From: an uncultured Dehalococcoidia bacterium
GTDB lineage: Bacteria; Chloroflexota; Dehalococcoidia; UBA6926
Length of the DNA stretch: 64,000 nt
Direction: 5' to 3'
Assembly (NCBI GenBank): GCA_964653005.1
Contig: CAZZAN010000001.1
Coordinates: forward strand, 237,898-301,897
The notes beneath the pieces are model-generated. The model was not told the origin of the DNA and made no database searches. It was given only the letters and a program-made list of their open reading frames with translations. Below, in pieces: positions 685 to 56,828 of this stretch (positions are counted from its first letter, which is position 1; every line of letters begins with the position of its first letter). A program made the translations under genes and the position numbers.

Positions 685-1113
685 TTGGCGGATGAGGTTC
701 TGGGCGTATCCGTTGGAACTGTCGTCTCGTTCACGAAAGAGATTTCAGCGCGTGACGTAGAGCAGTTTGCGGAGGCGACCGGCGACGTTCAGCCCATCCA
801 CCTTGATGAGGCCTATGCCAAGCGCACTCGCTTTGGGAATCGAATAGCGCACGGAATACTCACTGCGGGTGTTATCTCTGCGGCAATCGGTACTCAGCTT
901 GTGCCAAATGCGATCGCCATCTATATGGGGCAGACACTGCAGTTCCGGGCTCCCGTGTGGCTTGGCGATTCGGTTACTGCCACGCTTGAGGTCACGGAAC
1001 TTGACGTTGAGCGGCGTCGCGCCACCATTTCAACCACGTGCACAAATCAGAAGGATGAAGTGGTCCTCACCGGCGAGGCGCTGGTGATGCTGGACACCGT
1101 GCGTGACGAGTAG
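685..1113 (+). CDS. MaoC-like (R)-specific enoyl-CoA hydratase, single hotdog fold
   Basis: 142 aa with TTG start and an AGGGGG RBS. Hotdog/MaoC signature is present (RFGNRIAHGILTAG...). Confidence 0.75.
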   Translation: MADEVLGVSVGTVVSFTKEISARDVEQFAEATGDVQPIHLDEAYAKRTRFGNRIAHGILTAGVISAAIGTQLVPNAIAIYMGQTLQFRAPVWLGDSVTATLEVTELDVERRRATISTTCTNQKDEVVLTGEALVMLDTVRDE

Positions 1114-1175
1114 CGTGACTCTCTATCGGCGTGACTCGGTCGTTTTCTCAGAATCCCTTTAGGAGGCCAACGTAG

Positions 1176-2207
1176 ATGTTTGTTCTTGACCAGGGCAACC
1201 GGATCGTCGTGCCGCGGACGGAAATGACGTATCCGGGCCACAACATGCGGATGCATGAGAACGCGGCCACCGCGCCGGTCGACCATGTGATGGCTGACCT
1301 GGAGGATGCCTGCCCGTACGAGTTCAAGGGCGAACCCTCTCGCAACACGATCATGGAGGCGTTCAACACGCTCAATTACGGGGATAAGGTCGTCACATTC
1401 CGCCCGAACAACATCCATTCCCGTTTCTTCCTCGGAGACGTGGAAACGATCATGCGCGGGGCGGTCGACAAGTTCCACGGAATCATCCTGCCCAAGGTCA
1501 CCGGGCCGGAGGACGTGATCTACGTGTCCCGTCTTCTGGATGCCCTCGAGCTTGAGGCGGGTTGGACGACGAAGGTTGCCATCGAGACCCTGATTGAGAC
1601 GCCGGAGGCGATGGTCAACGTCAGCAAGATCGCAACGGCCTCGCCGCGGATGGCAGGGCTTATTTTCGGCATCGCGGACTTCGCTGCGGTGATGGGCGTT
1701 GTGGACGTCGTGGAAGACCAGAACAAGAACTTCCACTACGCCAAGCAGCACATGGCAGTGGCGGCAAAGGCGGCAGAGCTACACGCCATCGACAACGTGT
1801 TCTTCACCCTCGTCCGGCGTGACACGTCAGAGGAGGACGCGGCGAAGATCAATGAGGATTTGCTCCAGAAGAACGTCGAGGCCGCGAACCTGGGCATGGA
1901 CGGCACGTGGATCATCCATCCACAGCAGGCGCCGATGGCCAACATGGCCTATACGCCAAGCGACTCCCTCACCGAATACGCTTCGCGGTTGATCGACAAC
2001 TACCACGAGCGCGGCGGCGGAGCGTTTGTCTTCGAGGAGACGGGCGAGTTTGTCGACGAGGCGACGGCCAAGGGCTACCTGGTTCTGCTGGCGAAGGCGG
2101 CGCAGGCGGGCAAGGTTGAAGCGGACTGGCTGTCCGAGCATGCCGCGCGACACGCTGAAATCACGGGCTATGACGTGCTGCGGCAGGCGGGCCGACACGT
2201 CGCCTAG
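1176..2207 (+). CDS. CitE/HpcH-HpaI family acyl-CoA lyase, malyl-CoA/beta-methylmalyl-CoA lyase (Mcl)-like
   Basis: 343 aa with an AGGAGG RBS. Motifs IILPKVTGPEDV and ETPEAMVNVSKIATASPRMAGLIFGIADFAA resemble the CitE/malyl-CoA lyase family. Confidence 0.7.
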   Translation: MFVLDQGNRIVVPRTEMTYPGHNMRMHENAATAPVDHVMADLEDACPYEFKGEPSRNTIMEAFNTLNYGDKVVTFRPNNIHSRFFLGDVETIMRGAVDKFHGIILPKVTGPEDVIYVSRLLDALELEAGWTTKVAIETLIETPEAMVNVSKIATASPRMAGLIFGIADFAAVMGVVDVVEDQNKNFHYAKQHMAVAAKAAELHAIDNVFFTLVRRDTSEEDAAKINEDLLQKNVEAANLGMDGTWIIHPQQAPMANMAYTPSDSLTEYASRLIDNYHERGGGAFVFEETGEFVDEATAKGYLVLLAKAAQAGKVEADWLSEHAARHAEITGYDVLRQAGRHVA

Positions 2208-2230
2208 AGGACTCACCGCCCGAGAGCGTC

Positions 2231-3391
2231 ATGCCTGATCCGATTATCGAACCGCAGGACGCCATCGCGGCTGAGGTGCGCCGGTGGGTCGACCGGGAGG
2301 TTGTCCCGGTCGTTGATGAGCTTGAGCACAACAACACCTTCCCGGACCAACTCGTGCAGGGGATGCGGGAGCTCGGCCTGTTCGAGTTGATGATTCCGCA
2401 GGAATACGGCGGTATCGGCGCAACATATGTGAGTTATTCCGGCGTGGTTGAGGAGTTGGCACGGGGGTGGATGAGCCTCGGCGGCATCCTGAATACCCAC
2501 GTCATCATCACGCACCTTGTCGCCTCTTACGGCACCGATGACCAGAAGCAGCGTTATCTGCCGCAGTTGGCGACGGCTGAGCGGCGCGGGGCGCTGACGA
2601 TTACCGAGCCGAACGCAGGGTCCGACGTGCAGGCGATCCAGACCGTGGCCGTGAAGGATGGCGACGATTATGTGGTGAATGGCTCCAAGCTGTTTGTGAG
2701 CAACGGACGGCGCGGCGGCCTGTTCGCAATGGCCGTCAAGACGGACCCCCATGTTGATCCGCGCTATCGCGGCATCTCCTGCCTGCTGGTGCAGCCGGAT
2801 TTTGAGGGCTTCAACGTTACGCGTGACATTGAAAAGCTGGGTTACAAGGGCATCGAAGCGTCTGAACTGTCGATGGACGATCTCCGAGTGCCCGCGAGCA
2901 ACCTGCTTGGCGGTGAGGAAGGACAGGGATTCTTCCAGATTCTGAGCGGCGTTGAGGTGGGTCGTGTTAACACGGCGGCGCGAGCCGTTGGTGTGGCGCG
3001 TGCGGCATTCGAGGCCGCCGCCACGTATGCTCAGCAGCGGCAGGCGTTCGGCAAACCCATCGGAGAGCACCAGGCCATCCAGCTCAAGCTGGCGGATATG
3101 TATACGAATATCACCGCGGCGCGTCTGTTGGCGCGGTGGGCCGCAGGCGTCAAAGACCAGGGCGGGCGCGCCGACACTGAAGTCGGCATGGCCAAGCTGT
3201 TCGCGACGGAGGTCGCGACGCAGGCGACGCTGGAATCCATGCGTATCCACGGCGGGATAGGCTATACGAAGGAGATGCCGGTGGAGCGGTTCTTCCGTGA
3301 CGCGCCCGGCATGATGATCTATGAGGGCACAAACGAGATTCAGCGGACAATCATCGCTCGAAGTGTGTTGCAGCGGTACGCGGTGAATTAA
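2231..3391 (+). CDS. Acyl-CoA dehydrogenase (short/medium-chain type)
   Basis: 386 aa. ACAD motifs are present: ...GALTITEPNAGSDV..., C-terminal ...IYEGTNEIQR... Confidence 0.85.
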   Translation: MPDPIIEPQDAIAAEVRRWVDREVVPVVDELEHNNTFPDQLVQGMRELGLFELMIPQEYGGIGATYVSYSGVVEELARGWMSLGGILNTHVIITHLVASYGTDDQKQRYLPQLATAERRGALTITEPNAGSDVQAIQTVAVKDGDDYVVNGSKLFVSNGRRGGLFAMAVKTDPHVDPRYRGISCLLVQPDFEGFNVTRDIEKLGYKGIEASELSMDDLRVPASNLLGGEEGQGFFQILSGVEVGRVNTAARAVGVARAAFEAAATYAQQRQAFGKPIGEHQAIQLKLADMYTNITAARLLARWAAGVKDQGGRADTEVGMAKLFATEVATQATLESMRIHGGIGYTKEMPVERFFRDAPGMMIYEGTNEIQRTIIARSVLQRYAVN

Positions 3392-3405
3392 GCGGGAGAA
3401 TACCC

Positions 3406-3870
3406 ATGCAATTTGGACGATATCTCGAAGAGTTTGAAGAGGGCGCGGTGTACAAGCACTGGCCCGGCAGGACAATCACGCAGGCGGACGACATCGCCTT
3501 CTGCATGTTGACGATGAATCACCATCCCCTGCACATCGATGAAGAGTTCGGCAGGAACAGCCAGTTCGGACAGAACGTGGTGGTGGGCAACCTGGTCGTA
3601 GACATTGCCTTTGGTCTCAGCGTGTCGGACGTGTCCGGGCGTGCCATTGCCAATCTCGGGCTGGATGAGATTCGATTCCACAAGCCGACGTTCCACGGGG
3701 ATACAATCTACGCGGAGACAGAGGTGCTGTCCGTGCGGCCAAGCGATACCAGGCCGGATCGCGGCGTCGTAACGGTCGAGACCCGTGCGACAAATCAACG
3801 TGAAGAGACGGTGATGACGTTCAAGCGGAGCGTGCTGATTCCGCGAAAGCCGGAGGACAGTGAGGGTTAG
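3406..3870 (+). CDS. MaoC-like enoyl-CoA hydratase/dehydratase (hotdog)
   Basis: 154 aa with a GGGAGAA RBS. Hotdog fold, itaconyl/mesaconyl-CoA hydratase-like sequence. Confidence 0.7.
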   Translation: MQFGRYLEEFEEGAVYKHWPGRTITQADDIAFCMLTMNHHPLHIDEEFGRNSQFGQNVVVGNLVVDIAFGLSVSDVSGRAIANLGLDEIRFHKPTFHGDTIYAETEVLSVRPSDTRPDRGVVTVETRATNQREETVMTFKRSVLIPRKPEDSEG

Positions 3871-3881
3871 GGGGCGTCGCT

Positions 3882-5546
3882 ATGGCAACACGCTCTGAAG
3901 AAGAAATCCGCGCAGCCCACGCCGCGTGGGAGGAAAAGACCGCCGGCGCCCGTGAGCGCAAGGAGTCCTTTGACACGGATTCCATCGAGGGCATCAGCCG
4001 GGCCTATTCGCCTGAAAGCATCCCTGACCTGGACTTTCTCGGTGAAGTCGGATTTCCCGGCGAGTATCCGTTCACCCGCGGCGTGCAGCCCACCATGTAC
4101 CGCGGGCGGCTCTGGACGATGCGGCAATACGCCGGATTCGGCACGCCGACGGAATCCAACGAACGGTTCCGCTACCTGCTGGAGCAGGGGCAGACGGGGC
4201 TCTCCGTCGCATTTGATCTCCCAACTCAGCTGGGCTACGACTCCGATGATTCGCACTCGCTTGGCGAGGTCGGTAAGGTCGGCGTGGCAATCGATTCCCT
4301 GCGCGATATGGAGTTGATGTTCGAGGACATCCCACTGGACAAGGTCAGCACGTCGATGACCATCAACGCGCCGGCTGCCTTGCTGGTCGCCATGTACGTG
4401 GCGGTGGGCGAGAAGCAGGGGCATGAGCCCGCCGCGCTCACCGGGACCGCGCAGAATGATGTCCTCAAGGAATACATCGCGCGCGGAACGTATATCTACC
4501 CGCCGGGGCCATCATTGCGCCTTGCCGCGGATCTCGTGGGCTATTGCGCTCGGGAGATGCCGCGATTCAACAGTATCTCCATCAGCGGCTACCACATGCG
4601 TGACGCGGGGAGCACGGCGGCGCAGGAGATTGCATTCACATTCGCCAACGCCATTGCCTACGGCGAGGCGTTTGTTGAGCGTGGCGTCGACGCGGATTCG
4701 TGGGGCCCGCGCGTCTCATGGATTTTCAATACGCACAACAACTTCCTCGAAGAGGTTGCCAAGTACCGTGCGCTGCGCCGCATGTGGGCGAAGATCATGA
4801 AGGAGCGCTTCGGCGCGCAGGACCCGCGCTCATGGATGCTCCGCACGCACACCCAGACCGGCGGCTCCACGTTGACTGCTCAGCAGCCGCAGAACAATAT
4901 CGTCCGCGCGGCGTACCAGGCCATGGCGGCGGTGCTCGGCGGCGTGCAGAGCCTGGCGTTGTCTTGCTACGACGAGGCGCTTGGCATCCCGACGGATGAG
5001 GCACAGCGCGTGGCTTTGCGCACTCAGCAGATTCTCGCGCATGAGACGGGTGTGGCGGACACGGTAGACCCGCTTGCGGGTTCCTACTTCGTCGAGTGGA
5101 TGACCAACAATCTTGAGGAAAAGGCGTGGCAGTACCTGCGCCAGATTGAGGATCTTGGCGGCGCCGTGACAGCAATTGAGAACGGCGTCATTCAAAAGGA
5201 GATCGCGCAGGCATCCTACGACGTGCAGCAGTCCATCGAGAACGGTGATCAGCTTGTGGTCGGCGTCAACTCGTTCACGGACGGCAACGAAGACCAGTCG
5301 CTGCAGGTGTTCCGCGTGGACAACCGTGTCGTCGCGGAGCAGCATCAGTCGCTGGAGCGCGTGCGCGCTGAGCGGAGCGCAGAGGACGTGACGAACGCGC
5401 TTGAGGCACTGCGCGGAGCGGCCCGAGGGAATGACGACCTGATGGAGCCAATTCTTGGCGCGGTGCGGGCGTACGCGACGACAGGCGAGATCTCCGAGGC
5501 GCTGAGAGACGTGTTCGGGGAGTACACGCCGCCGGTTGAGGTATAA
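3882..5546 (+). CDS. Acyl-CoA mutase large (catalytic, TIM-barrel) subunit, methylmalonyl-CoA mutase family; no C-terminal B12-binding domain
   Basis: 554 aa. Strong MCM-family similarity: [59 protein letters not shown]. No DxHxxG cobalamin-binding motif is present, and no small-subunit gene is adjacent. Confidence 0.85.
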
Positions 5547-5550
5547 GGCA

Positions 5551-5943
5551 ATGGCCGACGCGAAATTTACACCCAAGTCCATTCAGAGCGTGAAAGAATC
5601 GGCGAACGCGGTCTGGCAGGAGCTGAAAGACAGGTACGGAGAAGATATTTATCTGAATGCCTTGGAGATTGAATTCAAGGAACGAAAGCTCCGCTATGAA
5701 CGGGAAAAGGAGTTGACGGTCAGCTACAAGGGCAATGATGTGGGACGACTAAAGGCGGACTTCGTCCTGTATGGGAATCTAATCATTGAGGTCAAATGCA
5801 GCGTCGCGCCTGCCCAGGATCATGTCGAGCAGTTGCGGGGCTATATGAAGCAGACAGGAATATCTGGCGGGCTCTTGGTGTATTTTCCGCGATTTTACAC
5901 GGAATCACCCACCTATATTGAAATTCCGGGTGACCTACAGTAG
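5551..5943 (+). CDS. GxxExxY family protein (PD-(D/E)xK-like small protein)
   Basis: About 130 aa from ATG 5551; the track's TTG at 5536 overlaps the mutase stop. Shows LKADFVLYGNLIIEVKCS...QLRGYMKQTGISGGLLVYF. GC is markedly lower than the flanking genes. Confidence 0.65.
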   Translation: MADAKFTPKSIQSVKESANAVWQELKDRYGEDIYLNALEIEFKERKLRYEREKELTVSYKGNDVGRLKADFVLYGNLIIEVKCSVAPAQDHVEQLRGYMKQTGISGGLLVYFPRFYTESPTYIEIPGDLQ

Positions 5944-5984
5944 GCAGAGACAGGAATAAGAAAGAGAAAGAGGGGGTAAGGACG

Positions 5985-6734
5985 ATGGCAGGACTGTTGG
6001 ACGGCAAGGTGGCGCTCGTTACGGGTGGATCACGCGGCATCGGCCGCGCAACCGCGGTGGAGCTGGCAGCAAGCGGCGCAGCGGTGGCCGTGAATTATAA
6101 CGCGAATGCGGACGCAGCCAACGAGGTGGTCAGTGAGATTACGGGCGCGGGCGGCAAGGCCGGCGCGTACCAGTTCAATATCGCCGACCGCGCAGCGGTT
6201 GATTCCCAGATCGATCAGATCGTGTCCGACCTCGGACCGGTCCAGATTCTTGTGAACAACGCAGGCGCAACCGCGGACCGCACGCTCAGGAATATGACGG
6301 ACGACCAGTGGGACAGCGTTATCGAGGTCAACCTGACCGGAACGTTCAATGTGACCAAGAAGGTCTGGAACATCATGGGCGAGGCCGGCGGCGGCCACAT
6401 CGTCAACATCAGCTCCATCGTTGGCGAGGCGGGACGGCTTGGCCTGATCAACTACTCGACGGCCAAGGCAGGGCTTTTGGGCTTCACCAAGACGGCAGCG
6501 CGCGAGGGCGCTCGCACGAATATCCAGGTGAACGCCATCGCGCCCGGGTTCATCGACACGGATATGATTTCCGGCCTGACGCCGGAGATGAAGGAAAACC
6601 TCAAGAAGGAGGCCGTTCTTGGCCGACTCGGCGAGGTTGAGGAGATCGCGAAGGTCGTGCGGTTCATCGTGAGCGAGGCGAGCTACATGACGGGCGCAAC
6701 GATCGACGTGAACGGCGGGATGTACTACCGCTAG
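5985..6734 (+). CDS. SDR-family 3-oxoacyl-ACP / acetoacetyl-CoA reductase (FabG/PhaB-like)
   Basis: 249 aa. TGGSRGIGRA Rossmann motif and YSTAKAG catalytic motif. Confidence 0.85.
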   Translation: MAGLLDGKVALVTGGSRGIGRATAVELAASGAAVAVNYNANADAANEVVSEITGAGGKAGAYQFNIADRAAVDSQIDQIVSDLGPVQILVNNAGATADRTLRNMTDDQWDSVIEVNLTGTFNVTKKVWNIMGEAGGGHIVNISSIVGEAGRLGLINYSTAKAGLLGFTKTAAREGARTNIQVNAIAPGFIDTDMISGLTPEMKENLKKEAVLGRLGEVEEIAKVVRFIVSEASYMTGATIDVNGGMYYR

Positions 6735-6776
6735 TACTCCGTCTGTTACAGGGATACAACCCAGGGGGATCAAACC

Positions 6777-7964
6777 ATGAGCGATGCAGTAATCGTGAGC
6801 GCAGTGCGAACCGCGGTTGGGGCAATGGGTGGCGGCCTTTCGAACGTTGCGGCGCCAAAGCTGGGCGCAGTCACCATCCAGGAGGCCATCGGGCGCTCCG
6901 GGATTCCGGAGGAAATCCTGCCGGATGAGGTGTTGATGGGGAACGTAATCCAGGCCGGGCTGGGCCAGAACCCTGCCCGCCAGTCCGCCATCCAGAGCGG
7001 CCTGCCGGTGAGCGTGCCCTCCACCACCATCAACAAGGTCTGCGGCTCCGGCCTCAAGACCGTCATCCTGGCGTCACAGGCCATCCGCGCAGGCGATGCC
7101 AGCTACATCGTCGCGGGCGGCATGGAGAACATGAGCGCCGGTCCGTACCTGGTGCAGAACGGCCGCTACGGCTATCGGCTCGGCAACGCCGAGTTGGTTG
7201 ACGCGACGGTCCACGACGGGCTGTGGTGCGCGATGGAAGATTGCCATATGGGCATCACCGCGGAGAACGTGGCTGCCGAGTATGGCGTCACACGCGAGGA
7301 CCAGGACGCCTTCTCCGCAGAGTCACAGCGGCGCGCCGGTGAGGCGATGAGCAGCGGCCGTTTCGCCGATGAAATCGTCAACGTGGAGATTCCGCAGAGG
7401 CGCGGCGACCCGGTGGTCGTGAACACCGATGAGCACCCACGCCCGGACTCCACCAGCGAGACGCTGGGGCGACTCCGCCCTGCGTTCACACAGGACAACG
7501 GCACGGTGACGGCCGGCAACGCCTCCGGCATCAACGACGGAGCGGCAACGACAATCGTCGTCTCTGAGGAGTTCGCCAATGAGCACGGCCTCAAGCCGCT
7601 GGCGCGCGTTCGCGGTTATGCCGCGGCGGGCGTCGATCCGCGCATCATGGGCATCGGCCCCATCACTGCCATGCAGAAGGCCGTCCGCCACGCAGGGCTG
7701 TCCATCAGTGACATTGACCTGATCGAGTTGAACGAGGCGTTCGCCGCGCAGTCCGTTGCGGTGTCACGCGAGCTTGAGCTCGATCCGGACATCGTGAACG
7801 TCAACGGCGGCGCAATCGCCATCGGTCACCCAATCGGCGCGTCCGGCACGCGCATTCTCGTCACCCTGCTCCATGAGATGCAGAAGCGAGAGACGCAGTT
7901 CGGGATGGCTTCCTTGTGCATCGGCGGCGGACAGGGCATCGCCCTGGTCGTTGAGGCCGTATAG
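6777..7964 (+). CDS. Acetyl-CoA C-acetyltransferase (thiolase II, PhaA/AtoB-like)
   Basis: 395 aa. Thiolase motifs: [34 protein letters not shown]. Confidence 0.9.
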
Positions 7965-11298: not shown

Positions 11299-12597
11299 AT
11301 GACAGCGGCCAAGCGGCCGAGGGTGGGTGCTATAGGATTGAGTTCCTCACAGCTGGATTCCATCAGGCCACTTTGCGGAATGCTTAGGCCAGCCGACTCA
11401 TTGGGCGATTATTGCGAGCTCTACAGTTGGACAGAAACGGACATCTTGGTAGCGTGTAATTTCGATTCTTGGGAGGATGAACCTTCCCCTCTTACCATCG
11501 ATCCTGATGTCAATATACTCGCCTTTAGTGAGTTTTATATCACATGGCCGGATAAGTACTCTACGAACAATTATGCTAACAATCACTACGCATCTACTAG
11601 CAGGAACACTGAGCGTGAACTGTCGGTTGCAGACGCTTGTCCGGATGTATATGAGCCACTTGCTGTTGATTTGATCAAGGAGTTAGCAAGAACTCAAAGC
11701 CTTCCTACAGTGATCGACACTTCCAGAAAGCGTTTTACATCGCTGGTTTCAACTACTTCAAACCAGCCTGTAGCCTTGTACATCGATTTGCCACCTCGAG
11801 CGGAGGGGCCTGACAGAGAACCAGTTCGAGCGTTCGCGCTCCTGCTCCCCAACGTTTCTAATCTCGCGGCCTGGTTCCGAGCCTTCCTTGCGGAGATTCA
11901 CGAAAGGAATCCTAGCCGGGTTCCACATGCCCCGCCTCGTTTGAGCAATCCATCAGATTGGTACACGCCTGAAGAAAGGGACCTAGCAGACCAAATCTCG
12001 GAAGTCAGCACGGAAATCACAGCCTTAACGGACAATCGTGACCGGCTTGAGGAACAACTGGCCATAAAGACGACAGAGGCCGACGCGGAGATTCGGAGCG
12101 CGCTCTGGGCCGACGGAGACGAACTGACCGCATCGGTCAAGGAGATTCTCTCCGGCCTAGGCTTTGTAGTCCGGGACATGGATACCGAATTGGATGAGGG
12201 GCAGCCTAAGCGCGAAGACTTGCGCCTGACACTTCCGGACAACTCTGCCTGGGAAGCCATTGTGGAAGTGAAGGGATATTCAGGCGGCACTAAGACGAGC
12301 GATGCCCGCCAAATTAGGGAGCACCGCGACCACTACACAGAGGAGAAAGGCCAGAAGCCTCATTTGACGTTGTGGCTGGCCAACGCACATCGCAACTATG
12401 CCCCTTCTGATAGACCTGCGCCGGATGGAAACGTCAAGGTGACCGCTGAGGTAGCCGGCATCGTTCACGCGCAAGTGCACGACCTACTTCGACAATGGTT
12501 GCTTGTTCAGGCGGGCAGTCTTGACGCAGCAATTGTCGTGAAAAGTCTGGTCGATGCCGAACCCGGACTCTGGACCCCACCAAAGCCTCCCGACTAG
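11299..12597 (+). CDS. Uncharacterised protein: unknown N-terminal domain, central coiled coil, C-terminal PD-x(n)-E-x-K nuclease-like motif
   Basis: 432 aa with a GGAGGGGG RBS. Shows a coiled-coil-like stretch (ERDLADQISEVSTEITALTDNRDRLEEQLAIKTTEADAEIRS), then LRLTLPDNSAWEAIVEVKGYSGGTK (PD...EVK). The gene is AT-shifted. Confidence 0.6.
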   Translation: MTAAKRPRVGAIGLSSSQLDSIRPLCGMLRPADSLGDYCELYSWTETDILVACNFDSWEDEPSPLTIDPDVNILAFSEFYITWPDKYSTNNYANNHYASTSRNTERELSVADACPDVYEPLAVDLIKELARTQSLPTVIDTSRKRFTSLVSTTSNQPVALYIDLPPRAEGPDREPVRAFALLLPNVSNLAAWFRAFLAEIHERNPSRVPHAPPRLSNPSDWYTPEERDLADQISEVSTEITALTDNRDRLEEQLAIKTTEADAEIRSALWADGDELTASVKEILSGLGFVVRDMDTELDEGQPKREDLRLTLPDNSAWEAIVEVKGYSGGTKTSDARQIREHRDHYTEEKGQKPHLTLWLANAHRNYAPSDRPAPDGNVKVTAEVAGIVHAQVHDLLRQWLLVQAGSLDAAIVVKSLVDAEPGLWTPPKPPD

Positions 12598-12818
12598 ACA
12601 TAGCGAGCCGCCTGATAAAGTATCGTGATGGGACAGAGAAGTCGGAGGCTTTTCCCAGTAGTGACGAACATGGCACCGGTCGCGTCCGCGAAAGTCGGGG
12701 CGCGAAAGCATCTATCCCAACGAGGTCGGCTCCGACGCAGGCACGAGCGATAAACACTCACATAACGCCGCCCGTGAAAACGACTAAACCTACTCCTGCT
12801 GACGGGGGATAACATCTT

Positions 12819-14303
12819 ATGAAGAGGGCGCTGTGGATAATCCTGATCCTTATTTTGACGCTGGTTGGTCTATGCACCGCGCTGACCGTTGCCTTACCTG
12901 TCCCTGAAGAATCGAATTCGACCGCAGAGCCATCTGAACAGACTCCTCGCGTAGCTGCACAAGTCCTTCATGCAGGACGAGCGGTTAACATGGAGGACTT
13001 TGGCCCGGGCCGCAAATATCCAAGTATCCAGATTTACGGCGAGGTCTGTGATGTAAACGAGTCGAACGCGCCTGAGTACGTGGAAGTATCCTTGTATGGA
13101 ATCATAAAGAGTCGCTACTCAGATTGGTGCATCAAATCAGTGACTTTAGGTGGGGCTTCAGAACTGAGTTCGGGGCTCGAGAAGGGCGATGCATTCGAAG
13201 CAATCTGTACTGGCACGATTTCAGAAGTCTCGGTTCATTTGCTGGTCAGGGAATGCAGTGCATTACCCGAGACAGGCAGACGTGATTCACCCGCACGAGC
13301 GCCAGCCGTGCCGATTTCGTCATCAAGGCTGGCCGATGCGGATTCAACAGAATATCTAAACCCTGAGCGGGTGGTAGAAGAGGTACGGGATACCGTCGTG
13401 CATATAAAGTCTGATTTTGGTAACTGGCCCGGTGTCATTTATGCTACAGAGGGTGTATCCGCGTTCATAGTCACAAATGCTCGCGCTGTTCTACAAGATA
13501 GCCAACTGTACGACACCGTCGAAGTTATGACCTATGACGGCACGTCTTATGGTGGTGCATTAATGATCTGGGATCAGGGCACTGACATTGCCATTATCGG
13601 TATCTGCTGTGGAGAGTTCGAGCCACTTGTATTTGGTGATGCATCCACGCTCGAGATTGGAAGAGAGGTCATCGCCGTTGGTCATCAGGGTCTCACGGAC
13701 ACATCGCTGAAATCGGTGCAGGGTGCAGTTACAGCACATGCCTTGGTGAGCGATGGCACCATCAATGTAATCCGCACTGATGCAATTGTAATTCCACAAA
13801 ATGATGGTGGGCTACTAATATCCCCGTTTGGCAAATTTCTCGGCATCAATACACCGGCGCTTTTCCCTTCGGAGGGCCTAGGATTTGCCGTCACAGAGAA
13901 GGCCATAAGAGAGTTCATCGACGGGTTCAGAACGGGCAATATACGTGTCCCACCCCCATCACCTACGTCTACAGCAACTCCCTTGATTGATGTCTGGGAC
14001 CTTTATGGCGAACATAGCGCCAATGCGATGAGGTTCGAGCGAGATCGAGCAGGAAAACGTGCCCAAATATATGGCCTCGTCTGCAGAATCGACGATAGTG
14101 CTCTTTATTTGTACGCGGATTCAGACAGCCTTCTTGTCGAATCTTGCGCTCATAGGGCGGTTGTCGTAGTTGGTTTAGCCGAAAACTTGTTACTGGAGTT
14201 ATCAGCCGGGGATACGTTTGTGGCGACTTGCCACGTGGCTGGATTTATAGATCAATCTGGTCTGCTTACAGACCATATGTATGTGGCGGGCTGCACCTCC
14301 TAG
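12819..14303 (+). CDS. Membrane-anchored trypsin-fold (HtrA/S1-like) protein whose catalytic His and Ser appear substituted (probable pseudo-protease), flanked by two homologous small domains
   Basis: 494 aa with an N-terminal TM (MKRALWIILILILTLVGLCTALTVAL). S1 motifs are present but altered: TNARAV where TN(A/N)HVV is expected, DIAIIGI, GREVIAVGHQG, IRTDAIVIPQNDGGLL where GNSGGPL is expected, GKFLGINT, GLGFAV. An N-terminal segment (QIYGEVCDVNES...GDAFEAICTG...HLLVRECS) and a C-terminal segment (QIYGLVCRIDDS...GDTFVATCHV...HMYVAGCTS) are visibly related to each other. Confidence 0.6.
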   Translation: MKRALWIILILILTLVGLCTALTVALPVPEESNSTAEPSEQTPRVAAQVLHAGRAVNMEDFGPGRKYPSIQIYGEVCDVNESNAPEYVEVSLYGIIKSRYSDWCIKSVTLGGASELSSGLEKGDAFEAICTGTISEVSVHLLVRECSALPETGRRDSPARAPAVPISSSRLADADSTEYLNPERVVEEVRDTVVHIKSDFGNWPGVIYATEGVSAFIVTNARAVLQDSQLYDTVEVMTYDGTSYGGALMIWDQGTDIAIIGICCGEFEPLVFGDASTLEIGREVIAVGHQGLTDTSLKSVQGAVTAHALVSDGTINVIRTDAIVIPQNDGGLLISPFGKFLGINTPALFPSEGLGFAVTEKAIREFIDGFRTGNIRVPPPSPTSTATPLIDVWDLYGEHSANAMRFERDRAGKRAQIYGLVCRIDDSALYLYADSDSLLVESCAHRAVVVVGLAENLLLELSAGDTFVATCHVAGFIDQSGLLTDHMYVAGCTS

Positions 14304-50562: not shown

Positions 50563-51582
50563 CTAGCGCACCGGCAGTTGAACGATCGCGCTGCCGCGCA
50601 CGCACGGCCTGCCGCCGCTCCCCTCACTCCACAACTCAAGCTCGACGAGCGCCGCGCCGTCATCGTCGCGCCATGTCCGTGAGACGCGGCCATAGTGCAT
50701 GATCGTCTCACCGATGAACGCCGGGGAGCGAACCTCGCCTCGAAAGTGCCGCAAAATGCCGCGCCGCCCCATCCACCGCGTCGCGGTCTGGCACAGCATG
50801 TCCCCCGAAAGATCACCCTGCGCAATCCGCTCCGGCAGTCCCTCCACTTGCGCATAGGCACGGTCGTAGTGGATCAGGTGGCTGTTGGTCTTCACGAGGC
50901 CGTAGAAGAAGACCTGCACGGTTGAGATGAAGCGTGGCAGCGGTGTCAGTTCATCGCCCTCGCTTACGTCATCCCATACCGGCTCGTCCGTCCACTGCGG
51001 CGGTTCGGCGGGCCGAGCCCGAGAGCCGTTTTCAAGCTGCAACTCGCCCCACGCCCGCCCCGCGCCATCCGGTGACGACGGCTGCGGCACAGTGGCCGTC
51101 GTGGTGCGGTCAATCATCACCGTGTGGCCATGCTGATTCGTGATAGTCATTTCCTTGGTGGTGAAGATCATTGCGCCGGAGCGTCCCTGCTTCTCCTCAA
51201 CGTCCGTGACCGTTGATTGGCGTGTCAGAACATCGCCCGGCCTGATGGGCTCAACGAACGTCACCTCCGTGCCCGTGTAACGCGACTGCGCGCCGGGGAT
51301 GCGAAGTTGGAGAGGATCATCGCGCGTGTCCGGCAGGCCGTCAGGGCGCAGGTCGGCAATGGCCGTCGGCGGGAAGCTGGTGAAGCCGGTGAACAGCGGC
51401 GGCGCGACGATGCCGCCATACGGGCCATCCTTGGCGCGCTCTTCGTCCACATATGAAGGCCGCGCGTCATCGACGGCATAGGCGTAGCGAGCAATCTCAT
51501 CAAAGGTGATGGGCGGCCGCGTCTCCTGCTCGGAAACCCGTCCGAGCAGTTCCCGCGCCGCTTGCAGCGCCTCGCTTGTCAT
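50563..51582 (-). CDS. Double-hotdog MaoC-type enoyl-CoA hydratase (mesaconyl-CoA hydratase Mch/Meh-like)
   Basis: 339 aa. N-terminal MaoC_dehydrat_N-like half, then C-terminal MaoC dehydratase half (...IHYDRAYA...). Confidence 0.7.
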   Translation of the reverse strand: MTSEALQAARELLGRVSEQETRPPITFDEIARYAYAVDDARPSYVDEERAKDGPYGGIVAPPLFTGFTSFPPTAIADLRPDGLPDTRDDPLQLRIPGAQSRYTGTEVTFVEPIRPGDVLTRQSTVTDVEEKQGRSGAMIFTTKEMTITNQHGHTVMIDRTTTATVPQPSSPDGAGRAWGELQLENGSRARPAEPPQWTDEPVWDDVSEGDELTPLPRFISTVQVFFYGLVKTNSHLIHYDRAYAQVEGLPERIAQGDLSGDMLCQTATRWMGRRGILRHFRGEVRSPAFIGETIMHYGRVSRTWRDDDGAALVELELWSEGSGGRPCVRGSAIVQLPVR

Positions 51583-51683
51583 ACTTGCCCGCCTCGATGA
51601 CTTCTGTGAGTACCAAGCAAGGATACGCCACCTTCGCGTCCATGCTGCCAGAGCGTTGCGTGAACTGAGTCAAAGATGGCACA

Positions 51684-54101
51684 GTGAGCGCCATGACAAA
51701 CACGACTACTGAACAAACGGCGCTTGGGCACCTGAAGGTTGTTGAGCTTGGCGGTGGCACCGGCGCATCTGCCATGGCGGGGCGGCTGCTTGGCGATATG
51801 GGCGCGGATGTCGTGCTCGTTGAGCCGCCCGGAGGGGTTGGCGCGCGCCATATAGGCCCATTCGCCAACGATGTTAACGACCCCGACCGCAGCCTGACCT
51901 TCCTCGACCACAACATCAACAAGCGCTCTGTGGTGTTGGATATTGATTCACAAGAAGGTCAAGAATCCGTGCGCCGCCTCGCGTCGTGGGCAGACGTGCT
52001 GATTGAGTCGTATCAACCTGGCTATCTGCGCGAGCGCGGCCTCGGCTACGAGGACCTTGCGGAAATCAACCCCGAACTCGTCTATGGCTCGCTGACGCCG
52101 TTCGGCCAGACGGGACCGTACGCGAACTACGCCTCCACGGAGCTGATCATCCAGTCGCTGGCGGGTGACCCGTGGGTATACGGCGACGATGAGCGCGCGC
52201 CCGCGATGGTGCCCGGCGATGCGACCGCCCGCATCGGCTCCATGCACCTTGTCTACGGCATCCTGCTTGCGCTGCGTGAGCGGCGGTGGTCCACGCGCGG
52301 CCAACATGTGGACGTGTCGCGGCAGGACATCGGCATATGGCAGCTGGTGAGCGGCAGCATCTCCCGCGTCGGACTGCGGAATGAGGTCTTCCGCCGCCCC
52401 GGCAAGGCGTCCACCGGCATCGGCAGCATCTATCACTGCGCGGATGGCGTGATCCAGTTCTTCCCGTCCACCAATGCGCAGTTCCGCGGCCTGGTCACGG
52501 GCTGGATGCAGGACTCCACGTTCGACGACGAGGCATGGGACGACACCAATTTCCGCCGCGACAACTACGACATTATCGATGTGGCCATGAGAGAGTTCAT
52601 GGGCAAGCTGACCGCCGCGGAGATCGAGGAGCAGGCGGCCATCCATGACGTCCCAATGGCGCGGCTGTCCACCATGGCGGAGTTCGTTGAGCATCCCCAC
52701 ACCGTGGCGCGCCAGTTCGTAGTCGATGCCACACATCCCGTCGTTGGCGACTACCGCGCTCCCGGCCCACCGTACAGGTTCAAAGGCACGCCGTGGGCGA
52801 TTACCCGCCATGCGCCGCGCGTGGATGAGCACGGCGCGGAACTTCGCACAATGATTGCGGGGCTATCATCCACCCCGGCTGACCTGTCGAAATATGTTGC
52901 GCGGCGGCACGACCGCCGCAAGCAGCCGCTTGAAGGTGTGCGCATCGCCGACCTGAGCCGCGTCTTTGCCGGGCCGTTCGGCACGATGCTGCTGGGATTC
53001 CACGGCGCGGAGGTCATTCGCATCGAGTCGGAGGATCTGCCCGCGTTCCGTATGCCGATGCAGCCGAACTACCCGGAACTGAACCGCAACAAGCAGTGCG
53101 TCACCATCGATATGCGGTCAAAGAAGGGGCAGGAGCTCATCAAGCAGATCGTCGCGCAGTCGGATGTGGTGATTGAGAATTTCCGCCCCACCGTCATGGA
53201 ACGCATGGGGCTTTCCTACGATGAGCTGCGCAAGGTGCGACCGAATGTGATTATGGCATCTATGTCCGGGTACGGTATGGACGGCCCGATGCGTGACCGC
53301 CCTGCTTTTGGGCAGTTGCTGATGGCGTTCGGGGGCTTGTCCTACATGTGGGGGCATCCGGAGAGCGACATCGATACGCGCCCCAAGAATGCGTATTCCG
53401 ACTTCACGCTCGGCGCGCAGGCGGCCATGGCCGTGATGATGGCGCTGGAGCACCGCGATCAGACCGGCGAGGGCCAACACATCGAGAGTTCCCACGTCGA
53501 GGGACTGGCCGCGCTGCTTGGGCCGGAGATGCTGAGCTACCTCATCAATGGGGTGAGCCCGCAGCCGCGCGGCAACGCCAGCGATTTCAACGCGCCGCAC
53601 GGCGTCTACCCCTGCCAGGGCTTTGATGCGTGGGTGTCAATCGCTGTCGAGAACGATGAGCAGTGGAACAAGCTGGTTGCCGTGATGGACGAGCCGACGT
53701 GGGCGAGTGACGGAAAGTTTGCTACACAGGAGAACCGTCTTGCCAATCGCCTTGAGCTCGATGAGCGACTGAGCGAGTGGACATCGACACGATGGGCGGG
53801 GCAGATCCAGGTTGCGCTGCAGGCCGTCGGCGTGCCATGCGGCGCGGTGCAGAATCCACTTGATCTCCTCAAGGACCCTCAGCTTGAGCATCGCGGCACC
53901 ATCGTGACGGCGCACCACGACCCGGACTGGTGGGGCACGATGCAGCACCCCGGCGTCTCCCTGCACCTGAGCGCCACGCCCGGCTGGGCAACGGACTCAA
54001 CCCCCGGCCTCGGCCAGGACAACGACCGCGTCTTTAAACAGCTGCTCGGCCTAACCTCCGCAGAGATAGAAGCCCTCACCGCAGAGGGAGTGCTGAGGTA
54101 G
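51684..54101 (+). CDS. Fused tandem class-III (CaiB/BaiF family) CoA transferase
   Basis: 805 aa. Two complete family-III halves each begin with the characteristic motif: LGHLKVVELGGGTGASAMAGRLLGDMGADVVLVEPP and LEGVRIADLSRVFAGPFGTMLLGFHGAEVIRIES. Confidence 0.8.
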   Translation: MSAMTNTTTEQTALGHLKVVELGGGTGASAMAGRLLGDMGADVVLVEPPGGVGARHIGPFANDVNDPDRSLTFLDHNINKRSVVLDIDSQEGQESVRRLASWADVLIESYQPGYLRERGLGYEDLAEINPELVYGSLTPFGQTGPYANYASTELIIQSLAGDPWVYGDDERAPAMVPGDATARIGSMHLVYGILLALRERRWSTRGQHVDVSRQDIGIWQLVSGSISRVGLRNEVFRRPGKASTGIGSIYHCADGVIQFFPSTNAQFRGLVTGWMQDSTFDDEAWDDTNFRRDNYDIIDVAMREFMGKLTAAEIEEQAAIHDVPMARLSTMAEFVEHPHTVARQFVVDATHPVVGDYRAPGPPYRFKGTPWAITRHAPRVDEHGAELRTMIAGLSSTPADLSKYVARRHDRRKQPLEGVRIADLSRVFAGPFGTMLLGFHGAEVIRIESEDLPAFRMPMQPNYPELNRNKQCVTIDMRSKKGQELIKQIVAQSDVVIENFRPTVMERMGLSYDELRKVRPNVIMASMSGYGMDGPMRDRPAFGQLLMAFGGLSYMWGHPESDIDTRPKNAYSDFTLGAQAAMAVMMALEHRDQTGEGQHIESSHVEGLAALLGPEMLSYLINGVSPQPRGNASDFNAPHGVYPCQGFDAWVSIAVENDEQWNKLVAVMDEPTWASDGKFATQENRLANRLELDERLSEWTSTRWAGQIQVALQAVGVPCGAVQNPLDLLKDPQLEHRGTIVTAHHDPDWWGTMQHPGVSLHLSATPGWATDSTPGLGQDNDRVFKQLLGLTSAEIEALTAEGVLR

Positions 54102-54188: not shown

Positions 54189-55960
54189 GTGCTTACCACG
54201 CAGATTCTTACCCCCAAGCAGTTATTCCAGAAAGACGTTCACTACACCATTCCGGACTTCCAACGGCCGTACGTATGGTCGCAGGAAGACCAGTGGGAGC
54301 CGTTGTGGAGCGACTTGCAGAATGTTGCGGAAGACTATCTTGAGCGCCGCGCAGAGACTGTAGACGCCGTAGAGGCTCAGGCCAAGGCGAGGGCACACTT
54401 TCTTGGTGCTATCGTCATGCAGCAGGTGCCAACACCCGCAAAGGACATCGAACGCAGAGAGGTGATCGACGGGCAGCAACGCGTCACTACGATTCAGTTG
54501 CTGCTGGATGCCACGCAAGAGGTCTTGGAAGAGCGTGGGCATCGCTTGCAGCTAGACGGCTAGCAAAGTATGTGCTGAACGACAAGGATCTTGTAGAGGA
54601 TGCCCCCGAACAGCATTTTAAACTGTCGCCCACCCGAGGAGACCGGGAAGCGTTCAAGCACGCGATGGACAACGGACTCGCCGTAAGCGAGTTTGAGGAT
54701 TCGTTGCTTGTTCAAGCCCACGAGTTCTTTAAGGATCAGGTTAACCAGTGGCTTGAGAGTGGACTGTCGTCAGAGGAATCGATGACTGAGGCTCTTGAAA
54801 CAGCAGTCACTTCCATGTTTGAGATGGTGGTTATCGATCTCGGACTCGAAGACGATGCCAATATCATTTTCGAGACACTGAATGCTCGAGGAACGCCCCT
54901 TGAACAGTCAGACCTCATCAAGAATTACGTTCTATCTCAGTTGCCCCAAGACGCTCCGGGTCGCGAGAATATCTGGGAAGGTCTGGACAATCCGTGGTGG
55001 AGGGAGACTGTCAGGCAGGGGCGTTTGCTCAGACCTCGGCTCGATATGCTATTCAACTATTGGCTCGCCATGCGTACAGGCAGTGAGGTTCGACCACCTG
55101 ATGTCTTTCGTGAGTTCAGAAAACATGCGGAGGATAGCAACATCGCCACAATAATGCCGGATGTCCAGAGGGACCTCCAAAACTACAGGAGATATGACCA
55201 AGGGCCCCGCCCGGAGGAAATCGAATCTTTCTATTACCGGATGGACGTGATGCAGGTTGGGGTGTTCACGCCTGCACTCCTGTTGCTTCTTTCCGCTGAT
55301 AATGACTCGCAAGTGCGTGCCTTCAACGCCCTCGAGAGTTTTCTGGTGCGTCGAATGGTCTCCAGGCGAACAACCAAAGACTACAACGGCTTGGCCTTGC
55401 AACTCGCAAACAGACTTCGCAATGGCGGACTAGCGGATCCGGCAAGGACAGTTATTGACTACTTTAGGGAACAAACAGCGGATTCTCGAGAGTGGCCGGA
55501 GGATGATAGCCTGCAAACCGCCATGGTTTCTTTGCCAATCTACCGTCTATTGACAAGAGGAAGGCTGCGGCTAGTACTGGAGGGGATAGAGACATCTCTT
55601 CGATCCAATAAGGCTGAGCAGCCTGACGTGCCGCGAAATCTCACGATTGAACACCTCATGCCACTTGGATGGGAGGAGAACTGGCCTCTGTACGAACCGT
55701 ATGATCGTGAACGGCGCAACAGTCTTGTGCATACAATCGGCAACCTGACTCTGGTCAATCGGAGGCTCAACTCATCCATGTCCAACGGCCCTTGGGAGGA
55801 CAAGCGAAAGGAATTACAGGAGCATAGTGTTATGACGCTGAATGCGGAATTGAGCCACCAGGATTCTTGGAACGAAGAGGAAATCATCGCGCGCAGTCGG
55901 CGCATGGCTAATCTGATAGCCAAGTGTTGGCCCGGCCCCGATTCCTCCCGGTGGGATTAG
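54189..55960 (+). pseudogene. GmrSD-like type IV restriction endonuclease (DUF262-DUF1524) disrupted by a frameshift
   Basis: Frame A (54189-54563) carries the DUF262 motifs IPDFQRPYVW and VIDGQQRVTT, then TAG. Frame B is open from before 54545 through 55960 and carries the DUF1524 HNH-like TIEHLMPLGW...NSLVHTIGNLTLVNRRLNSSMSN. The two frames overlap, consistent with a single-nt indel near 54558. Confidence 0.65.
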
Positions 55961-56809: not shown

Positions 56810-56828
56810 ATCATCGTCCCCGTTGCCG

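Follow-up and report, generated by a model that had tools for sequence, protein, structure and literature searches.

What acyl-CoA pathway is encoded by the eight genes that lie together at positions 685-7964 of a 64,000-nucleotide stretch of DNA (contig CAZZAN010000001.1, positions 237,898 to 301,897; hereafter the window) from an uncultured Dehalococcoidia bacterium of the phylum Chloroflexota? The cluster encodes the large subunit of a coenzyme B12-type acyl-CoA mutase together with an acyl-CoA dehydrogenase (ACAD), hydratases and a CitE-like lyase, and an original prediction from the DNA letters had compared it to a compact back end of the ethylmalonyl-CoA (EMC) pathway or of the 3-hydroxypropionate (3-HP) bi-cycle with enzymes of unusual size. 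The EMC pathway is one main alternative to the glyoxylate cycle for growth on C2 compounds; to our knowledge it has so far been tied to one family of fused ethylmalonyl-CoA mutases (ECMs) and is recognized mainly through crotonyl-CoA carboxylase/reductase (Ccr). On balance we favor the reading that the cluster is an EMC-type operon whose mutase, marked by an Ala-Leu-Ser (ALS) motif, is a candidate split ECM with its B12-binding subunit encoded elsewhere.

Eight open reading frames (ORFs) on the + strand fill this interval, and ORF calls together with Pfam and NCBIfam searches bear out their order, positions and sizes as first listed:

685..1113, + strand, MaoC-family, PhaJ-like hydratase, 142 aa
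1176..2207, + strand, HpcH/CitE-like, Mcl-like lyase, 343 aa
2231..3391, + strand, FadE3-like ACAD, 386 aa, with all three ACAD domains by Pfam
3406..3870, + strand, MaoC/PF19315 MC_hydratase protein, 154 aa
3882..5546, + strand, acyl-CoA mutase large subunit, 554 aa, PF01642 alone
5536..5943, + strand, GxxExxY/PD-(D/E)XK_3 protein, 135 aa
5985..6734, + strand, short-chain dehydrogenase/reductase (SDR) of the FabG/PhaB type, 249 aa
6777..7964, + strand, thiolase II, 395 aa

The gaps between cluster genes are 11-63 bp long, the region of the GxxExxY insertion excepted, and this spacing is compatible with a single operon; a scan for promoters and terminators gave counts at chance level.

The mutase matches PF01642 at 715 bits and has no B12-binding domain by Pfam. 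As was claimed at the outset, no small subunit adjoins it, and neither is there one elsewhere in the window. A Pfam search of nearly all larger ORFs in the 64 kb gave no B12-binding small subunit, MeaB or Ccr, and none of the scanned ORFs is an ADH_N/ADH_zinc_N protein; a tblastn search of the same DNA with reference small subunits, MeaB and Ccr gave no match either, in agreement with the earlier statement that Ccr is missing. The mutase carries Tyr83, Arg201 and His238 at the positions of Y89, R207 and H244 of the P. shermanii methylmalonyl-CoA mutase (MCM), so the carboxylate-binding and catalytic residues of MCM are present. The corresponding Tyr/Ala/Gln/Arg/His signature is common to 88 of the 88 split homologues that we collected, and one neighboring sequence of the isobutyryl-CoA mutase (ICM) type has Phe and Gln instead. 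An ICM identity was rejected because the Phe/Gln specificity residues do not occur in the mutase. Its best solved match is HcmA (PDB 4r3u, 546 bits), which is likewise a split large subunit and 49% identical; a 2-hydroxyisobutyryl-CoA mutase was nevertheless rejected, as Tyr, Ala and Arg, the residues of MCM, stand where HcmA has its specificity residues Ile90, Asp117 and Gln208. The remaining identities are 41% with the ECM reference, 45% with fused MCMs and 55-66% with the split homologues. An exact-match look-up found no identical copy of the mutase on record; relatives of 72-97% identity come from contigs of ~1.9-2.4 Mb and from marine and other metagenomes, the nearest named ones being metagenome-assembled genomes (MAGs) of Chloroflexota/Dehalococcoidia. 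A contig scan with the mutase gave at least ~80 more distant loci, the closest relatives not being among them.

Does the mutase group with MCM or with ECM? As ECM reference we used a fused mutase of 672 aa, encoded on a replicon of Methylobacterium aquaticum in divergent orientation to an adjoining Ccr gene (TIGR01751, 619 bits); it differs from MCMs in 35 of 153 near-invariant columns. Two plasmid sequences tried as additional ECM references were discarded, one (L089) being of the type with the usual His-Thr-Asn (HTN) motif and the other (L091) MCM-like. At another plasmid locus (L090, 5971-9088, Sphingobium plasmid AP027331.1), a split mutase is encoded along with a small subunit of its own and a GTPase resembling MeaB; this mutase has Val/Glu/Val/Val/Gln at Tyr89/Ala116/Gln197/Arg207/His244 and adjoins P450 and epoxide-hydrolase genes. 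Alphaproteobacterial Ecm has a fused B12 domain, and the mutase of the window differs from ECM, and is MCM-like, at 33 of the 35 discriminating positions; it is thus not a canonical ECM. It does not group firmly with MCM either. In a neighbor-joining tree computed without support values, the family of the window mutase groups with sequences from other Chloroflexota, from Dormibacterota and from Methylomirabilis and with three Ccr-linked sequences. When the 28 sequences of this ALS group were compared with 62 other split mutases and two fused MCMs, the group departed at exactly 6 of 158 conserved positions (W280, I281, L298, A359, L360 and S361). The changes are F280W and F281I (P. shermanii Phe286 and Phe287), A298L, and H359A, T360L and N361S (His364-Thr365-Asn366), by which QSLHTNxxDEA becomes QSLALSxxDEA. 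The HTN motif and the two phenylalanines (FF) are kept in the 62 split mutases, the two fused MCMs, HcmA and the ICM-type sequence, and ALS is carried by 119 of the 120 best database homologues. Split MCMs from Haloarcula, Bathyarchaeia and Geotalea (among loci L029-L087) share the layout, 55-60% identity and the Tyr/Ala/Gln/Arg/His signature with the window mutase, but retain QSLHTNxxDEA and FF. The ECM reference has QLP for HTN and is changed at four of the six positions too, an overlap that is not statistically strong (about P = 0.15 by hand calculation). A change of F to W at position 274 was dropped as an ECM-like marker, since the Ccr-linked relatives retain Phe. From these comparisons, the mutase is assigned to a distinct ALS-motif split subclade, unlike MCM and known ECM.

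An AlphaFold model of the mutase (mean predicted local distance difference test score, pLDDT, 87; predicted template modeling score, pTM, 0.90) places residues 280-281 in barrel strand beta6 and residues 359-361 where strand beta8 ends; known catalytic residues are found likewise at the termini of other strands of the barrel. In MCM, the Glu of the DEA motif contacts the adenosyl ribose. The changed residues, just upstream of DEA, may therefore line the substrate/adenosyl cavity in the model, and, being smaller, their side chains might accommodate the additional methyl group that ethylmalonyl-CoA carries. Residues 366-368, right after ALS-xx-DEA, are the sole segment with pLDDT <50, so the local structure of the changed region is uncertain. 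We tentatively raise the possibility that the ALS split mutases are separate, independently evolved ethylmalonyl-CoA or dual ethylmalonyl-/methylmalonyl-CoA mutases, with a B12 partner that is possibly shared with another mutase. They occur in Chloroflexota, Dormibacterota, Actinomycetota and Methylomirabilota.

If the ALS subclade differed in function from the other split mutases, would its genomic company differ as well? Split archaeal-type MCM large subunits are known, for example, from Metallosphaera sedula and Pyrococcus horikoshii. The split layout, which had been regarded as an oddity of this locus, is in fact an ordinary architecture, as a small subunit lies within 10 kb in just about 14-18 of about 60 HTN-type split loci. 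A comparison of 29 ALS-type with 57 HTN-type loci gave the following features within ~10 kb:

B12-binding small subunit: ALS-type 0/29, HTN-type 14/57
MeaB: ALS-type 0/29, HTN-type 10/57
Any EMC-type neighbor: ALS-type 21/29, HTN-type 0/57
Ccr: ALS-type 6/29, HTN-type 0/57
FadE3-like ACAD: ALS-type 11/29, HTN-type 0/57
154-aa-type hydratase: ALS-type 9/29, HTN-type 0/57
Mcl/CitE-like lyase: ALS-type 10/29, HTN-type 0/57
PhaJ-like hydratase: ALS-type 9/29, HTN-type 0/57
SDR: ALS-type 13/29, HTN-type 0/57
Thiolase: ALS-type 9/29, HTN-type 0/57
SucCD-like thiokinase: ALS-type 4/29, HTN-type 0/57

The two types differ in the presence of any EMC-type neighbor (P = 7e-14, Fisher's exact test) and of a small subunit (P = 0.002, Fisher's exact test). 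EMC-type neighbors are also found in 14 of the 22 ALS-type loci outside the window's own family, and in 29 of 29 loci no gene for a B12 partner lies within ~10 kb of the large subunit. Moreover, Ccr lies directly upstream of the ALS-type mutase in three loci, all above the TIGR01751 cutoff of 378.55 bits. In L150, Ccr (547 bits), the mutase and a FadE3-like ACAD form one tight operon; in L132, Ccr (511 bits) and the mutase stand beside a lyase-ACAD-hydratase set; and in L073, the surroundings of Ccr (499 bits) and the mutase include a second Ccr as well as genes for a PhaJ-like protein and a CitE-like lyase. This order puts the mutase in the slot that ecm occupies in the Streptomyces operon. 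Ccr-like genes are also located within ~7-10 kb in Dormibacterota L019, L020 and L022, of which L019 alone was scored (562 bits). In a Candidatus Methylomirabilis MAG (L015, 88-5669), a FadE3-like ACAD, an ALS-type mutase, a thiolase and a PhaC-like alpha/beta hydrolase follow one another, an order that hints at a link between the ALS-type mutase and polyhydroxyalkanoate (PHA) metabolism.

Several observations weigh against an EMC-type operon. The window lacks Ccr, an epimerase, propionyl-CoA carboxylase, the B12 small subunit and MeaB; the mutase is MCM-like at the 33 positions mentioned above, as judged against a single ECM reference that is named by its Ccr neighbor, and it keeps Thr at a site that is occupied by Asp or Asn in the Ccr-linked relatives and by Glu in ECM. 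The association statistics ignore phylogeny, and most of the thresholds for neighbors were scaled to the proteins of the window itself, of which the references for Ccr and Mcl are independent; since L132 and L150 were found via the ACAD, their ACAD linkage is ascertained rather than independent. Some ALS-type members are solitary (HR29, Tepidiformaceae, L006 and others) and could be the MCM of their organism, and a SucCD-like thiokinase next to the mutase in relatives of the cluster fits a succinyl-CoA product. Finally, the identity of the lyase to Mcl is just 30-32%.

A rival reading takes the mutase as an ordinary MCM and the cluster as the back end that is common to the EMC pathway and the methylaspartate cycle, in which methylsuccinyl- or mesaconyl-CoA is converted via beta-methylmalyl-CoA to glyoxylate and propionyl-CoA, and the latter to succinyl-CoA via MCM. 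In that case the cluster would serve for growth on or turnover of C5-dicarboxylates (methylsuccinate, mesaconate, itaconate, citramalate), or else the genome would carry an ECM gene at another place. The intact Tyr/Arg/His triad, the 33 MCM-like positions and the solitary members in other Chloroflexota, as possible housekeeping MCMs, are compatible with it, and so are the missing Ccr and the top NCBIfam match of the 154-aa hydratase, itaconyl-CoA hydratase RipB/Ich. It would further account for the SucCD-like thiokinase and LysR regulator in the operon of three relatives (L002, L007 and L175) and for loci L011 and L016, in which the thiokinase clusters with CitE-like lyases and the mutase; both would be expected if succinyl-CoA or a free dicarboxylate takes part. 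However, HTN and FF are invariant in fused MCM, HTN-type split, HcmA and ICM-type sequences and both are replaced in the ALS subclade; the mutase occupies the ecm slot right after Ccr in L150, L132 and L073; the conserved thiolase, reductase and PhaJ of the operon would have no role; and ALS-type genes are never near a small subunit or MeaB, unlike those at HTN-type loci, where EMC-type neighbors are never found. We therefore regard an ordinary MCM, the main rival to the EMC-type operon, as unlikely.

Is the dehydrogenase suited to a dicarboxylyl-CoA substrate? The best solved match of the ACAD is M. smegmatis FadE3 (4iv6, 436 bits), and P. denitrificans Mcd (6es9, 257 bits) is no closer than average. 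The catalytic Glu365 is in place, with Leu before TEP where the canonical residue is aromatic. Helix G reads GRVNTAARAVG, and R251 in it lies 114 residues before Glu365. In the P. denitrificans methylsuccinyl-CoA dehydrogenase (PdMCD), Arg-421 binds the substrate carboxylate and lies at the same spacing of 114 from Glu-535 (PMC5798300). From this spacing, rather than from a direct alignment to the PdMCD sequence, R251 is the putative equivalent of Arg-421. It is present in 80 of 80 metagenomic members of the subfamily, in all cluster orthologues, in M. smegmatis FadE3 and in the mutase-adjoining ACADs of Methylomirabilis, and other ACADs have Gln, Leu or Met at this position. Equivalents of PdMCD Arg-252, Arg-376 and the N-terminal extension were not found in the ACAD. 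A metagenome scan with the ACAD subfamily gave 80 loci of 50-60% identity, 51 of them with enough flanking DNA. Among the 51, a 154-aa-type hydratase (44-65% identity) directly adjoins the ACAD in 12, a CitE-family lyase is nearby in 8, and both lyase and hydratase are found in 5. The lyases of L132, L141, L097, L107, L168, L139, L073, L011 and L016 are 37-45% identical to characterized Mcl. The pairing of short ACAD, short hydratase and Mcl-type lyase is thus widespread, including in other phyla, and together with the invariant helix-G Arg it points to a dicarboxylyl-CoA substrate. An isovaleryl-CoA dehydrogenase of a leucine pathway was ruled out by the FadE3-like match and the standard position of Glu365.

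The sizes of the ACAD and the hydratase, which the original prediction had taken as an anomaly, are not one. The emc operon of Streptomyces tsukubaensis is ccr1-ecm-mml-mch-mcd, 6067 bp in total with 4835 bp for the last four genes, and is required for growth on acetate (PMC4606968). By our own arithmetic, which is not in that paper, if ~670 aa for a fused ECM and ~320 aa for an Mcl are taken off the 4835 bp, ~600 codons remain, and these fit a ~155-aa hydratase plus a ~390-aa ACAD, not the 350-aa and 550-aa alphaproteobacterial forms; the Streptomyces Mch and Mcd would thus be short, and the supposedly non-canonical sizes are most likely those of the usual actinobacterial versions. The window and the Streptomyces operon both encode an Mcl-type lyase, a hydratase and an ACAD with the mutase, and three high-GC metagenome loci (L132, L141 and L150) carry the ACAD/hydratase subfamilies of the window with Mcl-type lyases and Ccr. 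They differ in that the window cluster has no ccr, a split ALS-motif mutase instead of a fused ECM, a divergent 343-aa lyase at the low identity to Mcl given above, additional thiolase, PhaB-like and PhaJ-like genes, and another gene order. With the alphaproteobacterial EMC pathway (R. sphaeroides, P. denitrificans, M. extorquens) the cluster shares the proposed chemistry, a lyase that aligns over its full length with 4l9y and 5ugr, an ACAD with the putative equivalent of the helix-G Arg of PdMCD, and a hydratase that matches PF19315. The alphaproteobacterial Mcd is ~550 aa long, is extended by 170 residues at its N terminus and has a cluster of three arginines (PMC5798300), whereas the ACAD of the window has 386 aa and one of the three arginines could be located; likewise, the alphaproteobacterial Mch is a 350-aa double hot-dog protein and the hydratase here has 154 aa.

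What of the hydratase and the lyase themselves? The 154-aa hydratase matches PF19315 MC_hydratase (75 bits, cutoff 26.5), and its top NCBIfam model, the RipB/Ich one mentioned above, scores 136 bits, under the cutoff of 340. Among solved structures, the hydratase comes closest to beta-methylmalyl-CoA dehydratase 8hgn (103 bits), followed by the MaoC dehydratase 4e3e of Chloroflexus (100 bits). Both are double hot-dog proteins, and the single hot-dog aligns with either half of them; its D-x-N-P-x-H motif has Asn in place of Asp. We predict that it is a mesaconyl-CoA-hydratase/Ich-like protein. The lyase matches PF03328 (98 bits) and DUF6986 (54 bits), and its best solved matches are R. sphaeroides Mcl1 4l9y (114 bits) and M. 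extorquens Mcl 5ugr (113 bits), ahead of CLYBL (61 bits), RipC (46 bits) and CitE (30-39 bits). It fits the Chloroflexus Mcl less well than the proteobacterial Mcl. In the full-length alignment to Mcl, the LED, R-x-N, IE, G-x-AD-F, W-x-IHP-Q and C-terminal VDxA motifs are kept, among them those for metal and substrate and the Asp of the C-terminal lid. The lyase is under every NCBIfam equivalog cutoff. CitE was rejected because the citE model failed (TIGR01588, 118 bits vs 443), because CitE structures score 30-39 bits against 113 for Mcl, and because citD and citF are not nearby. The protein is thus predicted to be a divergent malyl-CoA/beta-methylmalyl-CoA-lyase-like enzyme, closest to Mcl, so that the subfamily check of the lyase came out in favor of malyl-CoA lyases rather than citrate-lyase beta subunits.

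To what extent is the arrangement conserved? The core lyase-ACAD-hydratase-mutase-SDR-thiolase is kept in all seven relatives examined (L001, L002, L005, L007, L173, L174 and L175), down to a mutase identity of 72%. Three forms of the cluster occur: the window, L001, L173 and L174 have the PhaJ-like gene in front; L002, L007 and L175 add LysR, a second CitE-like gene, a pair of SucCD-like thiokinase genes and an ORF of 73-75 aa; and L005 has a second CitE-like gene as its sole addition. The second CitE-like protein and the SucCD-like thiokinase of these relatives probably handle malyl-CoA/malate or succinyl-CoA. In L174 the genes upstream of the cluster differ and the block is intact, and this persistence despite rearrangement shows that the arrangement is not a chance juxtaposition. 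The 73-75-aa ORF, which belongs to no family, is found at 8109-8330 in L002, 8085-8306 in L007 and 8093-8320 in L175, and also at ~3668-3874 in L011 and ~4373-4588 in L016; it is always 3' of the SucCD-like thiokinase and is 51-70% identical among distant Chloroflexota.

The 135-aa ORF between mutase and SDR is the one gene of the eight that does not belong to this block. It matches TIGR04256 (78 bits) and PF13366 (82 bits) and represents an insertion of ~400 bp in the mutase-SDR spacer, which is ~80-90 bp long in L001 and L173; these relatives, 97% and 91% identical, lack the ORF. Being a strain-specific insertion, it is outside the pathway, and it was ruled out as the missing B12 subunit because it is a GxxExxY/PD-(D/E)XK protein that occurs in this strain only. 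In L174, an unrelated 175-aa ORF of no family (11728-12255) occupies the same site, which suggests that the spacer is an insertion hot spot within the operon.

Could the conserved genes simply combine two unrelated modules? The 142-aa protein matches PF01575 (86 bits) and has a single hot-dog; its best solved relatives are the PhaJ enzymes 5cpg (99 bits) and 1iq6 (90 bits), and the hydratase-2 catalytic Asp and His are found in GDVQPIH. Its start codon is uncertain, the L173 copy being called as 135 aa. It is a putative PhaJ-like (R)-specific enoyl-CoA hydratase. That it forms a split double hot-dog Mch with the 154-aa hydratase is unlikely, since the clusters of L002, L005, L007 and L175 have no PhaJ-like gene. 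The SDR matches adh_short (200 bits) and scores 251 with acetoacetyl-CoA reductase TIGR01829 (cutoff 302) and 273 with FabG TIGR01830 (cutoff 298), as would befit a FabG/PhaB-like 3-oxoacyl reductase; homologues of 45-51% identity follow ALS-type mutases in Dehalococcoidia L010, L014, L017, L023 and L024. The thiolase matches Thiolase_N (312 bits), Thiolase_C (175 bits), TIGR01930 (479 bits, cutoff 241) and PRK05656 (545 bits), its position is kept in all cluster relatives, and it is predicted to be a thiolase II, acetyl-CoA C-acetyltransferase-like. ACAD, (R)-hydratase, SDR and thiolase would make up a formally complete (R)-type beta-oxidation cycle, so that the cluster could be a juxtaposition of an (R)-specific short-chain beta-oxidation or PHA-type set for C4/C5 substrates with a mutase that links propionyl-CoA and succinyl-CoA, as in 3-hydroxyvalerate supply, and with a hydratase and a lyase that separately treat citramalyl-, itaconyl- or malyl-CoA. 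This would agree with the PhaJ-mutase-SDR triplets of Dehalococcoidia L010, L017, L023 and L024, where lyase, ACAD and 154-aa hydratase are absent, and with the ACAD-mutase-thiolase-PhaC-like order of L015.

A precedent is the M. tuberculosis trio Rv2498c (CitE), Rv2499c (MaoC) and Rv2500c (FadE19), which acts in leucine and itaconate catabolism. It resembles the window in that an ACAD, a MaoC hydratase and a CitE-family lyase for carboxylated acyl-CoAs are encoded together. In contrast, the lyase of the window matches the Rv2498c structures at 30-34 bits, its ACAD is FadE3-like with the standard catalytic Glu, and there is no methylcrotonyl-CoA carboxylase at the cluster. The dicarboxylyl-CoA substrate to which the helix-G Arg and the recurrent Mch-like hydratase/Mcl-type lyase pairing point, the normal Glu365, which is not isovaleryl-CoA-dehydrogenase-like, and the cohesion of the seven genes across genome rearrangement all argue against a juxtaposition, which would also leave the Ccr linkage of the mutase and ACAD subfamilies unexplained. 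It is thus quite improbable, and the best-supported reading is that the seven conserved genes constitute one putative operon in which a C4 front end is joined to a C5 back end.

How would an EMC-type pathway run through these enzymes? The thiolase would condense 2 acetyl-CoA to acetoacetyl-CoA, which the PhaB-like reductase would convert to (R)-3-hydroxybutyryl-CoA and the PhaJ-like hydratase to crotonyl-CoA. Two enzymes with genes outside the window, namely Ccr and an epimerase, would be needed to turn this into (2R)-ethylmalonyl-CoA, and the split mutase, together with a B12-binding subunit from elsewhere, would rearrange the latter to (2S)-methylsuccinyl-CoA; the mutase possibly also converts methylmalonyl-CoA to succinyl-CoA. 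The FadE3-like ACAD, as a short Mcd analogue, would oxidize (2S)-methylsuccinyl-CoA to mesaconyl-CoA, the 154-aa hydratase, as a short Mch analogue, would hydrate this to beta-methylmalyl-CoA, and the Mcl-like lyase would cleave the latter to glyoxylate and propionyl-CoA. The lyase may also join glyoxylate and acetyl-CoA to malyl-CoA, and propionyl-CoA carboxylase would be encoded outside the window. The substrate assignments, the ECM role of the mutase and the location of Ccr elsewhere in the genome are all inferred from the sequences.

Two other routes through the same enzymes have to be considered. One is a shortcut in which the product of an MCM, succinyl-CoA, would be oxidized by the ACAD to fumaryl-CoA, hydrated to malyl-CoA and cleaved to glyoxylate and acetyl-CoA. 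The ACAD-hydratase-mutase order, the Mcl-like lyase, the MCM-like carboxylate-binding residues and the carboxylate-type Arg of the ACAD are compatible with it. We know of no natural succinyl-CoA dehydrogenase; such an enzyme has been called sought after (PMC5798300). The shortcut has no positive support, and it leaves the Ccr linkage, the altered HTN and FF and the C4 front-end genes unexplained. We consider it very improbable. The other would derive, as a remnant or a variant, from the half of the Chloroflexus 3-HP bi-cycle that assimilates glyoxylate (Mcl, Mch, Mct, Meh). Chloroflexus is of the same phylum, the lyase and hydratase families match, and a tandem family III CoA-transferase and a double hot-dog protein are encoded 43 kb off in the window. 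However, these two genes are unlinked to the cluster and under all equivalog cutoffs (the mesaconyl-CoA isomerase model gives 121 bits vs a cutoff of 725 for the tandem CoA-transferase), the lyase fits proteobacterial Mcl better, the bi-cycle has no role for an ACAD, and its mesaconyl-CoA C1-C4 CoA-transferase and second hydratase are in neither the cluster nor the clusters of the relatives. We give this origin scarcely any credence. The earlier mapping onto an EMC/3-HP-like back end thus survives in its EMC part, the route that best fits the comparative evidence, and not in its 3-HP part, for which there is no pointer, Mct and Meh not being adjacent.

Some other genes of the window deserve mention. 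The double hot-dog gene (339 aa, FAS1_DH/MaoC) and the divergent 805-aa tandem family III CoA-transferase gene occupy 50563-54101; the best NCBIfam models of the latter are succinate-glutarate CoA-transferase and succinyl-CoA:mesaconate CoA-transferase, all under cutoff, and the pair is possibly another dicarboxylyl-CoA module. At 56366-57368 on the - strand, two small adjoining hot-dog ORFs (179 aa and 147 aa) look like a heterodimeric dehydratase pair of the HadA/HadB type. GroES and GroEL come after the cluster, and between the SDR that follows GroEL and tsaD (11299-14303) lie an ORF of 432 aa that matches nothing in Pfam and a trypsin-like protease of 494 aa, neither of which is at the corresponding position in L001 and L173. 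A GmrSD-type restriction endonuclease at 54189-55960 is in two ORFs, one of 124 aa with the N-terminal part of GmrSD_N and one of 462 aa with the rest of GmrSD_N and GmrSD_C, so that the gene either has a frameshift or is split by nature.

Neither the logic of the pathway nor the short forms of Mcd and Mch are new. What had not been known is that a split ALS-type mutase stands where ECM would be encoded, that its gene is consistently apart from that of a B12 subunit, and that the complete set occurs in Chloroflexota. We found no literature that links the cluster or the mutase subclade to Chloroflexota or to the EMC pathway, several key papers being outside the search. If the mutase is a plain MCM instead, the HTN motif would be dispensable for MCM chemistry. 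If the ALS-type mutases are ECMs, they would offer a natural case of an acyl-CoA mutase retuned by a handful of changes in its barrel (HTN to ALS, FF to WI), and the 154-aa hydratase, the 386-aa dehydrogenase and the split mutase would be a compact set for the engineering of synthetic CO2 fixation and acyl-CoA rearrangement. Present annotation would then hide such ECMs as "methylmalonyl-CoA mutase", and pathway prediction would change for Chloroflexota, Dormibacterota and many Actinomycetota, which are abundant in soil and ocean. Acetyl-CoA assimilation of the EMC type would in that case be widespread in poorly cultured phyla, including small-genome marine Chloroflexota.

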